Shown here one piece after another: positions 3,452 to 61,156 of a DNA stretch of 64,000 nt. How positions within the stretch are numbered: the stretch's first letter is position 1; each line of letters opens with the position of its first letter. Under the pieces are notes generated by a model. That model did not search any database and was not told the DNA's origin. It saw only the letters and a program-made list of their open reading frames with translations. The DNA is taken from positions 96,001 through 160,000 of the forward strand of contig CAVTRY010000022.1 in NCBI GenBank assembly GCA_963737265.1, in the 5' to 3' direction. This stretch comes from an uncultured delta proteobacterium. GTDB taxonomy: Bacteria > Myxococcota_A > Polyangia > Fen-1088. The position numbers and the translations under genes were made by a program.

Positions 3452-3529
3452 TCGAACCAACTCGTGGCCACATCCCATAGCACGGATTCGCATCCTGGGC
3501 GGGATCCCGTGATACTCTCTCGACGGCGA

Positions 3530-4108
3530 GGGTGCCTCCCTGAAACGGGGGCCCCAGCCGGGGGCTCGGTGAGGTAGCAACTTCTGGCGGAGTGCCGCCG
3601 AAAACGCAGATATGGAACAGCGAGGAACGGAGAAACAGAGACAGGATGACTTTACTGGGCAAATTATCGCCGCCTGCATCGAAGTCCACCGTCACCTCGG
3701 TCCCGGGCTGCTTGAGTCGGCCTACGAGCACTGCCTGGCGCGCGAGCTAGGCCTGCGTGGATTTCGCACGCAACGTCAGGTCGCGATTCCTCTGCAGTAC
3801 AAAGGCATTGACCTCGACTGCGGCTATCGCCTCGACCTCATGGTGGAAGGCCGTTTGGTCGTCGAAGTCAAGGCGGTAGAGCAGTTGCTTCCTGTCCACT
3901 TGGCACAGGTCATTACCTATCTCAAGCTCCTACGACTGCCGGTGGGCCTGCTCGTCAATTTCCACGTCCCCGTACTTCGCGAGGGTCTCCGCCGCCTCGT
4001 CAACCCAACCCGTGATTCCTCTGGTCCTCCGTTCCTCCCTGTTTTTCCCTCCGATCCCACCTGCGCGGGGCGAGGTGAAGCCCCAGCCCCCATTTCAGGG
4101 AAGCACCC
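3530..4108 (+). mobile_element. 579-bp TIR-bounded element (MITE/IS-like) carrying GxxExxY ORF, copy 1
   Basis: TIRs GGGTGCCTCCCTGAAACGGGGGC (3530-3552) and 4086-4108 match at 21/23. Direct repeat CGACGGCGA at 3521-3529 and 4109-4117. Near-identical copy at 46591-47169. Confidence 0.93.
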
Positions 4109-4367
4109 CGACGGCGACTGGCCATTGACAGCGGGGCGAGACCGCCTTAGAAGCCAGTCAGAAAGCCATGCAAATGAAAAACTACCAGTGGACGCTAGGA
4201 TTTTTCGTGGCCGCGCTTTTCGTGGCCACCCCGGCATGCAAGCCCGAGTACCCGGCTTGCGAAACCGACAAGGACTGCAAGAGCAAGGAATTTTGCGTAG
4301 CCCGCAAGTGCCAGCAGTGTCGCGACAGCAACGACTGCGGCGAGGGCCGCGAGTGCAGCAACGGTAA
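3612..4367 (+). CDS. GxxExxY protein (PD-(D/E)XK nuclease family); ORF reads through the element end
   Basis: LGPGLLESAYE, YRLDLMVE..VVEVKAV, QVITYLK, GLLVNF motifs. Conserved domain ends near 4004; no in-frame stop inside the element. Confidence 0.9.
   Translation: MEQRGTEKQRQDDFTGQIIAACIEVHRHLGPGLLESAYEHCLARELGLRGFRTQRQVAIPLQYKGIDLDCGYRLDLMVEGRLVVEVKAVEQLLPVHLAQVITYLKLLRLPVGLLVNFHVPVLREGLRRLVNPTRDSSGPPFLPVFPSDPTCAGRGEAPAPISGKHPDGDWPLTAGRDRLRSQSESHANEKLPVDARIFRGRAFRGHPGMQARVPGLRNRQGLQEQGILRSPQVPAVSRQQRLRRGPRVQQR
4125..4153 (+). promoter_or_regulatory. Possible sigma-70 promoter for pal-cpoB
   Basis: TTGACA-17 bp-TAGAAG just upstream of the ATG at 4168/4174. Confidence 0.45.
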
Positions 4368-28320: not shown

Positions 28321-28385
28321 GGGGCGGCCACTTCCATGGTCACGACCTCGTACCCTTCCATCGCCGCCTGCAAGGCGCAGATGGG
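28321..28385 (-). pseudogene. 65-bp fragment of an ahcY allele
   Basis: 60/65 identical to 30809-30873; encodes [21 protein letters not shown]. Confidence 0.85.
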
Positions 28386-30276: not shown

Positions 30277-31735
<1,459 letters not shown>

Positions 31736-46541: not shown

Positions 46542-47087
46542 CTAGATCGTATACGTGCGCCGCCGCGGAGTCAACCGAGGCGACGACAGAGGGTGCTTCC
46601 CTGAAATGGGGGCTGGGGCTTCACCTCGCCCCGCGCAGGTGGGATCGGAGGGAAAAACAGGGAGGAACGGAGGACCAGAGGAATCACGGGTTGGGTTGAC
46701 GAGGCGGCGGAGACCCTCGCGAAGTACGGGGACGTGGAAATTGACGAGCAGGCCCACCGGCAGTCGTAGGAGCTTGAGATAGGTAATGATCTGTGCCAAG
46801 TGGACAGGAAGCAACTGCTCTACCGCCTTGACTTCGACGACCAAACGGCCTTCCACCATGAGGTCGAGGCGATAGCCGCAGTCGAGGTCAATGCCTTTGT
46901 ACTGCAGAGGAATCGCGACCTGACGTTGCGTGCGAAATCCACGCAGGCCTAGCTCGCGCGCCAGGCAGTGCTCGTAGGCCGACTCAAGCAGCCCGGGACC
47001 GAGGTGACGGTGGACTTCGATGCAGGCGGCGATAATTTGCCCAGTAAAGTCATCCTGTCTCTGTTTCTCCGTTCCTCGCTGTTCCAT
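46542..47087 (-). CDS. GxxExxY protein, copy 2
   Basis: Same as copy 1 except V->I (HLAQIITY); different read-through tail. Confidence 0.9.
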   Translation of the reverse strand: MEQRGTEKQRQDDFTGQIIAACIEVHRHLGPGLLESAYEHCLARELGLRGFRTQRQVAIPLQYKGIDLDCGYRLDLMVEGRLVVEVKAVEQLLPVHLAQIITYLKLLRLPVGLLVNFHVPVLREGLRRLVNPTRDSSGPPFLPVFPSDPTCAGRGEAPAPISGKHPLSSPRLTPRRRTYTI

Positions 47088-47169
47088 ATCTGCGTTTTCG
47101 GCGGCACTCCGCCAGAAGTTGCTACCTCACCGAGCCCCCGGCTGGGGCCCCCGTTTCAGGGAGGCACCC
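46591..47169 (-). mobile_element. 579-bp TIR-bounded GxxExxY element, copy 2
   Basis: Reverse complement of 3530-4108; direct repeat GACGACAGA at 46582-46590 and 47170-47178. Confidence 0.93.
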
Positions 47170-47352
47170 GACGACAGATGCGACAGATGACGGACCATCC
47201 ATTCGCTGATTCAGTTAGCCAGAATGTACGATCCTGCCGCGCACCGACGTTGACGGTTTGCGGCTAAGTGAATAGAATCGCACCGTTTGGATTCATTAAG
47301 GCCTAGCAACATTGCAGCCGAGGATATAGGCCCCGCCGGGGTCGAGAGCACC

Positions 47353-60847: not shown

Positions 60848-61156
60848 ATGGCTATCCAGTCCAATTCGAAATCAAACAAGGCAAAAAACGAAAAGCCCGC
60901 GCCTGCCGCCAAGGCACCCGCGCCTGCCGCCAAGGCGGCACCCGCGCCTGTCGCCAAGGCACCCGCGCCTGTCGTCAAAGCGCCCGCGCCCGCGCCCAAG
61001 GCGACGGCCAAGCCGCGTGCTCCCTACGAGCCAACCCAGGAGGAGATCCAGACCCGCGCTTTCGAGATTTATGTCAGCGAGGGATGCAAGGAAAACAACG
61101 ATCTCGAGTACTGGCTGCGCGCGGAACAAGAACTGCGCGCGCAAGCCAGCCGCTAG
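60848..61156 (+). CDS. DUF2934 protein with Ala/Lys/Pro repeats
   Basis: EEIQTRAFEIY..G...DLEYWLRAEQEL; AKAPAP tandem repeats. Confidence 0.85.
   Translation: MAIQSNSKSNKAKNEKPAPAAKAPAPAAKAAPAPVAKAPAPVVKAPAPAPKATAKPRAPYEPTQEEIQTRAFEIYVSEGCKENNDLEYWLRAEQELRAQASR

Follow-up and report, generated by a model that had tools for sequence, protein, structure and literature searches.

A transposase-less 579-bp element with ISKra4-type ends and a GxxExxY cargo gene, probably mobilised in trans

In the account given in PMC4337579, mobile insertion cassettes (MICs) or MITEs (miniature inverted-repeat transposable elements) consist of inverted repeats of insertion sequence (IS) type placed around a passenger gene; they have no transposase of their own and are activated by the cognate transposase, as exemplified there by MIC231, which is moved by IS231A in Bacillus cereus, and by the TnXax1-derived MICs of Xanthomonas. 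Here we describe an element of this general kind, 579 bp in length, which encodes a putative GxxExxY nuclease and no transposase, and two copies of which lie in the stretch of 64,000 nt that was analysed in this work (hereafter the window; G000:C22:96001-160000, where G000 is the genome assembly of a soil bacterium, of 6.55 Mb in 25 contigs with an estimated contamination of 7.6%). The references of that account include Chen et al. 1999. Inverted repeats starting with GGG and a 9-bp target duplication are typical of the ISKra4 family in ISfinder, and among papers containing both words, judged by title, we found no described ISKra4 MITE or MIC. A nuclease on a transposon is known from Tn7, in which the PD-(D/E)XK nuclease TnsA acts beside the DDE transposase TnsB.

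The explanation that we consider quite probable is that the element, which has ISKra4-type ends and a GxxExxY cargo, is a non-autonomous DNA transposon, or a mobile insertion cassette of MITE size, and that it is moved in trans. An earlier, sequence-only reading of the window had offered, as one option, a MITE with captured GxxExxY cargo, mobilised in trans. The ISKra4-type ends and an IS present in the same genome support this option, and what has to be changed in it is the cargo, which appears to be a pre-existing cassette and not a lone captured gene.

Copies, target duplications and recent activity

The first copy of the element occupies positions 3530-4108 of the window on the plus strand, and the second occupies 46591-47169 on the minus strand. 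They are, as the sequence-only reading had stated, one 579-bp sequence in opposite orientations, and the single V/I substitution that it had noticed is the only difference between them (element position 380, G>A, window 46790, V100I in copy 2). The terminal inverted repeats (TIRs), which in copy 1 lie at 3530-3552 (GGGTGCCTCCCTGAAACGGGGGC, plus strand) and 4086-4108 (GGGTGCTTCCCTGAAATGGGGGC as read on the minus strand), are 23 nt long and identical to each other at 21/23 positions (91%), the very figure given in that reading, and they are present in all 31 full-length copies described below. Each window copy also has a perfect 9-bp target site duplication (TSD) of its own, different between the two copies as had been noted: CGACGGCGA at 3521-3529 and 4109-4117 for copy 1, and GACGACAGA, given on the plus strand, at 46582-46590 and 47170-47178 for copy 2.

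The earlier count of two copies did not stand. When the 579-bp sequence was compared by BLAST with the whole G000 assembly, 44 pieces were obtained, which make up 39 copies, 31 of them full-length and eight others (five interrupted or internally deleted and three truncated). The genome-wide search for TSDs proposed in the sequence-only reading gave a clear answer: 29 of the 31 full-length copies stand between perfect 9-bp TSDs, comprising 28 distinct 9-mers, one has a perfect 10-bp TSD, and one, an older-subfamily copy, has a TSD matching at 7/9 positions. No target consensus was found across the 29 perfect TSDs and their flanks, where only a weak C before and a weak G after the TSD were seen, and the GC content of the TSDs is 65% vs 63% for the genome.

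The element is mobile and has recently been active, as the sequence-only reading had supposed, because many copies are identical and because the site of copy 1 is empty in four sister genomes. Copy 1 is identical to three other copies in G000, making a group of four mutually identical copies, and most of the remaining copies have 1-4 differences from the consensus; a second subfamily is composed of four copies, which show 93-94% identity and a 10-bp deletion. Empty sites with a single 9-mer, which had been suggested as something to look for, were sought in a genus comparison of 13 genomes (G000 and 12 relatives). The intergenic site of copy 1 is empty in G002, G008, G010 and G001, each of which has a single 9-nt stretch at the orthologous position, and the alignment is free of gaps after removal of the element and one 9-mer. 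For copy 2, no synteny of the left flank was found in the 12 relatives.

An independent check was made with contigs of four public soil runs. The breaks in these contigs fall at 3530 and 4108-4110, where the free ends are the flanks of other G000 insertion sites; in run X2 the word depth was 59-113 on the element vs 1.5-4.6 on its flanks. No joint skipping the element was found in the contigs of the four runs, in which rare empty alleles would not show. Among the public runs listed as containing the sequence, none was an RNA run.

The insertion sites lie almost entirely outside genes. In a local test, 2 of the 31 sites fell in coding-like DNA vs 289 of 500 random positions (Fisher p 1e-8); an earlier test of coding context, which was too insensitive, had given 1 of 31 sites vs 90 of 400 random positions. 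The bias may reflect either a preference of the transposase or the purging of genic insertions.

Three copy sites have a more complicated structure. At G000:C17:62354-63520 two copies stand head to tail in the same orientation with one 9-mer between them, and GCGCCACGG is found three times there, in both flanks and between the copies; the second copy of the pair is a recombinant of both subfamilies. The pair could be due to a second insertion at a target already used, or it could represent a tandem-dimer intermediate. The copies at G000:C20:14118-16133 and G000:C23:162554-164571 (L032 and L033) are each split by the same IS of about 1,430 bp, which has repeats CATAGGCATTAACCC..., an 11-bp duplication and a 438-aa IS4-like transposase (97.6 bits, below the cut-off of 115). 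One of these insertions is in the left subterminal part of the element and the other in the right, and both are beside a CCCAGCC-like stretch.

Source of the ends and candidate driver

To find sequences sharing the ends of the element, the whole G000 assembly was scanned for the 23-bp TIR with up to 4 mismatches. Among the 75 matches, 73 are within element copies, and the remaining two are the ends of a 2,120-bp IS at G000:C20:66979-69098 (hereafter the C20 IS), each of whose repeats agrees with the element TIR at 19/23 positions. This IS is present as a single copy in G000 and is flanked by the 9-bp duplication GGAAAGCGG. Its 466-aa open reading frame (ORF), at G000:C20:67126-68523, scores 256.9 bits on NF033572, the model of the ISKra4 transposase (cut-off 205); the transposase gene is followed by another ORF (141 aa; L031:2137-2562, G000:C20), for which Pfam, NCBIfam, PADLOC and PHROGs gave no match. 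The sequence-only reading had suggested searching for an IS with the same TIRs and a DDE transposase, and the IS found here, with related repeats, refutes autonomy of the element and leaves its mobility untouched.

A second ISKra4-like IS in G000 is 1,782 bp long and is represented by 10 full copies and 1 partial copy. It starts with GGGTG, has repeats GGGTGGGTTGCACGGG... and makes 9-bp duplications; its 576-aa ORF scores 178.1 bits on NF033572, which is below the cut-off, and its repeat agrees with that of the element at 11/23 positions. One copy of this IS lies at G000:C22:80621-82403, 13.6 kb upstream of the window.

Related ends were also detected outside G000. A related IS end is present at four contig ends of the sister genome G009, and one of these reads GGGTGCTTACCTGAAACGGGGGC and matches the element copies at 22/23 positions. 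About 170 nt inward of the G009 IS end an ORF starts with MSRRRRKPK, resembling the start MSHYRRRSK of the G000 transposase, and the right subterminal 12-mer of the G009 IS, CCTCGCCCCGCG, is present in the right end of the element as well. Neither a protein search nor the NF033572 model detected an ISKra4 transposase in G009, G018, G005, G003 or G004; these assemblies are fragmented, and absence cannot be read from this result. A transposase with more than 33% identity to that of the C20 IS is confined to G000 within the 13 genomes of the genus, and so is the burst of copies.

Judged by these sequence comparisons, the element ends would derive from this ISKra4-type IS clade. Mobilisation in trans is favoured because ISKra4-type repeats and a 9-bp duplication are common to the element and the IS in the same genome, and we infer that the C20 IS is the best candidate driver in this genome. 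Its presence makes ISKra4 trans-mobilisation directly testable.

The driver might instead be an IS other than that on C20, namely the 11-copy ISKra4-like one, or else a cognate IS whose repeats are exactly those of the element and which was lost or left out of the assembly. We regard this as possible, though rather unlikely. It would account for the agreement of the C20 IS at only 19/23 positions, given the closer end (22/23) in G009; a contig could have been binned out of an assembly of 25 contigs with the contamination estimated above, and the 11-copy IS makes the same 9-bp duplication. On the other hand, the repeat of the 11-copy IS agrees at only 11/23 positions, the assembly contains no further TIR-like site at up to 4 mismatches, and a tblastn search found no other close transposase. 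Furthermore, several copies of the element are 100% identical, hence the driver should still be present.

The GxxExxY gene and its repeat-armed cassette

The ORF of copy 1 extends over 3612-4367 on the plus strand (251 aa). It starts at element position 83, and its domain, at 3648-3998, ends at residue 129. The consensus element has no in-frame stop, and the ORF continues past the right TIR into whichever flank is there; in copy 2 it covers 46542-47087 on the minus strand (181 aa), reads out via the TIR at 46591-46613 and stops in the flank. For annotation this means that the approximately 39 copies give proteins with different tails and not 39 independent genes. A scan of 3480-4160 gave no sigma-70 promoter and no intrinsic terminator, and the host may use other signals.

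The identification of the gene as GxxExxY in the sequence-only reading is well founded: the main ORF scores 140.2 bits on PF13366 PDDEXK_3 (cut-off 22) and 142 bits on TIGR04256 GxxExxY (cut-off 35). Of the ORFs of 60 aa or more in the element, the family search was made with this main one; these are its sole family match, and no transposase match was obtained. Across 12 aligned sequences no variation is seen at D62 and K74, while E22 and E72 are each kept in at least 90%, and we infer that these four are the catalytic residues, of the E...D...ExK type. The fold model has a predicted local distance difference test score (pLDDT) of 73.6. The top rows of its comparison by VIA-align are nearly all restriction-endonuclease-like, with Z of only 5-6.8 (for 1y88, Z 6.8 and root-mean-square deviation 3.1 over 87 aligned residues), and a Foldseek search of the model against the PDB gave no match at E <= 0.001. 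No sequence relative was found in the PDB at E <= 1, and the protein has no PADLOC or PHROGs family.

The gene is intact in about half of the copies. The start codon and the whole domain are in frame in 16 of the 31 full-length copies and broken in the other 15, and certain lesions are shared by copies that stand at separate sites between duplications of their own. These are 379delG (8 copies), 470delG (5), 366insC (3) and ATG>CTG (3). Defective copies have moved or were converted, and an intact ORF in cis is not required. Copies with the same frameshift or lost start are found at separate sites, which makes it unlikely that GxxExxY is the transposase. The new point variants of the burst comprise 2 synonymous vs 10 non-synonymous changes, including a nonsense codon and a lost start, and they look neutral.

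The domain is bracketed by an inner inverted repeat of 25 nt (88% complementary), the 5' arm of which, at 3616-3640, overlaps the start of the ORF and reads AACAGCGAG GAACGGAGA AACAGAG, three purine-rich words phased at about 9 nt; the 3' arm, at 4019-4043, is within the C-terminal tail of the ORF. Both arms lie on the plus-strand copy at typical positions, the gap to the domain being about 10 nt from the end of the 5' arm and about 20 nt to the start of the 3' arm, and their words are degenerate, with AACAGAG and AACGGAG in place of CACAGAG. The comparison of arms across elements covers 7 of 11 entries.

We took 80 GxxExxY loci from many phyla, 77 of which could be evaluated, and scored the inverted repeats flanking the gene. 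Scores of 14 or more were reached at 40 of the 77 loci vs none of 282 controls, which were shifted windows from the same loci. The arms in the sampled loci are arrays of the type ACCACAGAG-CACAGAG-CACAGAG, composed of phased 7-nt words that are purine-rich upstream on the coding strand. Among 11 single-copy GxxExxY loci, five show the arm layout clearly and one is borderline. The sole other GxxExxY gene of G000, at C22:198320-198790 between a comM-like gene and recA, is in a stand-alone, divergent cassette whose DNA is unrelated to the element, and it has the same layout with nearly perfect arms, TTCACCACAGAG.GCACAGAGG.CGCAGAGGAC, and no ISKra4-type ends. A search of the literature, supplementary files not being covered, found nothing on repeats around GxxExxY genes; one paper gives the function of PF13366 as 'Unknown'.

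Cassettes related to that of the element are found in two relatives, with 91% identity over element positions 41-514 in G005 and 81-82% in two copies in G009; the 23-nt TIR was not found at these loci at up to 6 mismatches. Thirteen small elements from G003 and G004 were aligned, and 12 of them have the cassette minus its nuclease core; they share the junction of the deletion, at which element positions 180 and 454 are joined. These core-deleted cassettes are within a different MITE of about 365 bp, with repeats of approximately GGGAACCCTG.GAGGGCA.CCCTTTCAAGGT, in at least 12 copies in two species (L045-L056). Since the same arm layout is found around GxxExxY genes elsewhere, the cargo appears to be a pre-existing repeat-armed module and not a lone captured gene.

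In G005 (L034:1440-1990, on C17) the full cassette is preceded directly upstream, in the same orientation, by what is left of a cassette's 3' arm and tail (element positions 478-532), and it looks as if a newer cassette replaced or abutted an older one.

The window contains two other sets of repeats. At 60896-61003 there are four units of tandem 21-24-nt repeats (CCCGCGCCTGCCGCCAAGGCA and variants), which, if translated, would probably give a Pro/Ala/Lys-rich repeat. A 65-nt direct repeat with 92% identity, at 28321-28385 and 30809-30873, has its members 2.5 kb apart, and these are probably conserved parts of two paralogous genes.

Proposed mechanism and comparison with known systems

In the explanation that we prefer, the outer approximately 45 bp on each side, i.e. 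the 23-bp TIR and a subterminal part, would have come from an ISKra4-family IS, and the interior would be a selfish-looking module, a gene for a PD-(D/E)XK-type nuclease of the GxxExxY family between inverted phased-repeat arrays. An ISKra4-family DDE transposase supplied in trans, putatively by the single C20 IS, would cut the element out and insert it; the staggered cuts in the target would be 9 bp apart, and their filling in would give the 9-bp duplication. A recent burst would have raised the element to about 39 copies, surviving almost only in non-coding DNA. GxxExxY would be a passenger, outside the chemistry of transposition.

Several observations weigh against this explanation. The C20 IS differs from the element at 4 of the 23 TIR positions at each end and has no subterminal similarity to it. 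In the scan at up to 4 mismatches an IS with the exact repeats of the element was absent from the assembly, and a pattern scan of species-representative genomes for the TIR gave three records and no full IS. The better-matching IS of G009 is assembled at its ends only, and the co-occurrence of IS and burst rests on a single genome. One of the two G009 cassettes retains an 11-nt match to the TIR start together with right subterminal similarity, because of which the claim of a cassette without ends is not clean for this copy, which is possibly related to the composite element and has decayed. The shared lesions may reflect gene conversion, the markers being mosaic among the copies. Finally, the domain is under purifying selection between the two subfamilies, with 7 synonymous vs 3 non-synonymous changes and a ratio of non-synonymous to synonymous rates (dN/dS) of 0.15, and such constraint is not what one would readily expect of a gene that is purely a passenger and present about 39 times.

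Compared with the G005 and G009 cassettes, the dN/dS of the domain is 0.11-0.28. This is the pattern of a gene that mattered to the lineages leaving descendants, on small numbers. The two subfamilies also differ in the arms in a correlated way, 106A>T occurring with 495G>A and 92C>G restoring a pair. Lineages are under selection and copies of the burst decay neutrally, and from this contrast the role of GxxExxY can be approached.

Such constraint between lineages, set against the neutral variants within the burst, speaks for a reading in which the element would be a parasite in two parts, depending on a DDE transposase in trans and using its own GxxExxY to aid its spread or persistence, be it by second-strand cutting as TnsA does in Tn7, by action on the hairpin arms or by punishing the loss of the element. 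The co-varying arms and the conservation of the putative catalytic E, D and ExK positions point the same way. Nevertheless we think this, which includes the second option of the sequence-only reading (GxxExxY as an aid to mobility or maintenance), unlikely. Only 10 changes separate the subfamilies, which is a small count; one and the same frameshift is found in copies at different sites, though intact copies could complement them in trans; and the element contains no TnsB-like or other partner gene. Moreover, like cassettes occur in many phyla without ISKra4 ends, which argues that the function of the cassette is independent of this transposon. Equally doubtful to us is the idea that two selfish systems form a chimera and that the nuclease, with its own hairpin arms or intermediates of transposition as substrate, would raise the spread or retention of a mini-transposon mobilised by a DDE enzyme. 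If it were true, an active passenger would explain purifying selection between lineages alongside the decay of single copies, and the large orphan GxxExxY family would gain its first testable activity, with about 39 natural replicates.

That the element is autonomous, with GxxExxY itself acting as transposase or homing nuclease, seems very improbable. In its favour, the element has no gene but GxxExxY, and there are homing nucleases of the PD-(D/E)XK type. Against it, ISKra4-type DDE elements of this genome have such repeats and a 9-bp duplication too, 15 of 31 copies have a broken ORF, and in G003 and G004 the cassette multiplied even after losing its core. A homing element was ruled out as a candidate, as the 29 perfect TSDs show no target consensus. 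An artefact of assembly, which the sequence-only reading had named as a possible objection to mobility, or of duplication is refuted, because the independent contigs of all four runs reproduce the junctions, the element exceeds its flanks 15- to 30-fold in word depth, and 31 sites have distinct flanks and duplications of their own.

Mobilisation in trans of an element with an ISKra4-derived shell and a passenger gene is the reading that we carry into the comparison with known systems. With TnsA of Tn7 the element would share a restriction-endonuclease-fold protein, as far as the fold model goes, encoded on a DDE-type transposon; it differs in having no adjacent DDE gene, and GxxExxY is mostly found outside transposons. 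Searches with PDB sequences, Foldseek and VIA-align gave no sequence match or specific fold match between TnsA and GxxExxY. A Tn7-like TnsA/TnsB system was ruled out, the element having a single family-matched ORF and no DDE gene.

As for the ISKra4 IS family (NF033572), repeats starting with GGG and a 9-bp duplication are found in both ISKra4-type ISs of G000 and in the element, whereas the element has no transposase gene and has the ends alone in common with them. With MICs and MITEs it shares IS-type repeats flanking a passenger, the lack of a transposase, a TSD of the length made by the parent family and presumed mobilisation in trans. It differs from them in its ISKra4 parent, in a passenger that is itself a repeat-armed, selfish-looking module, and in an ORF without a stop inside the element; moreover, its approximately 39 copies here are MITE-like and unusually many for a gene-carrying cassette.

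The repeat-armed GxxExxY cassettes, finally, have in common with the element a gene with arrays of short, phased words in inverted orientation on its two sides, but here the cassette is within DDE-type repeats. All new insertions carry these repeats and the 9-bp duplication; the spread in G000 was therefore by hitch-hiking and not by a mover of the cassette's own. The element would be a case of one selfish module, the repeat-armed GxxExxY cassette, hitch-hiking on another.

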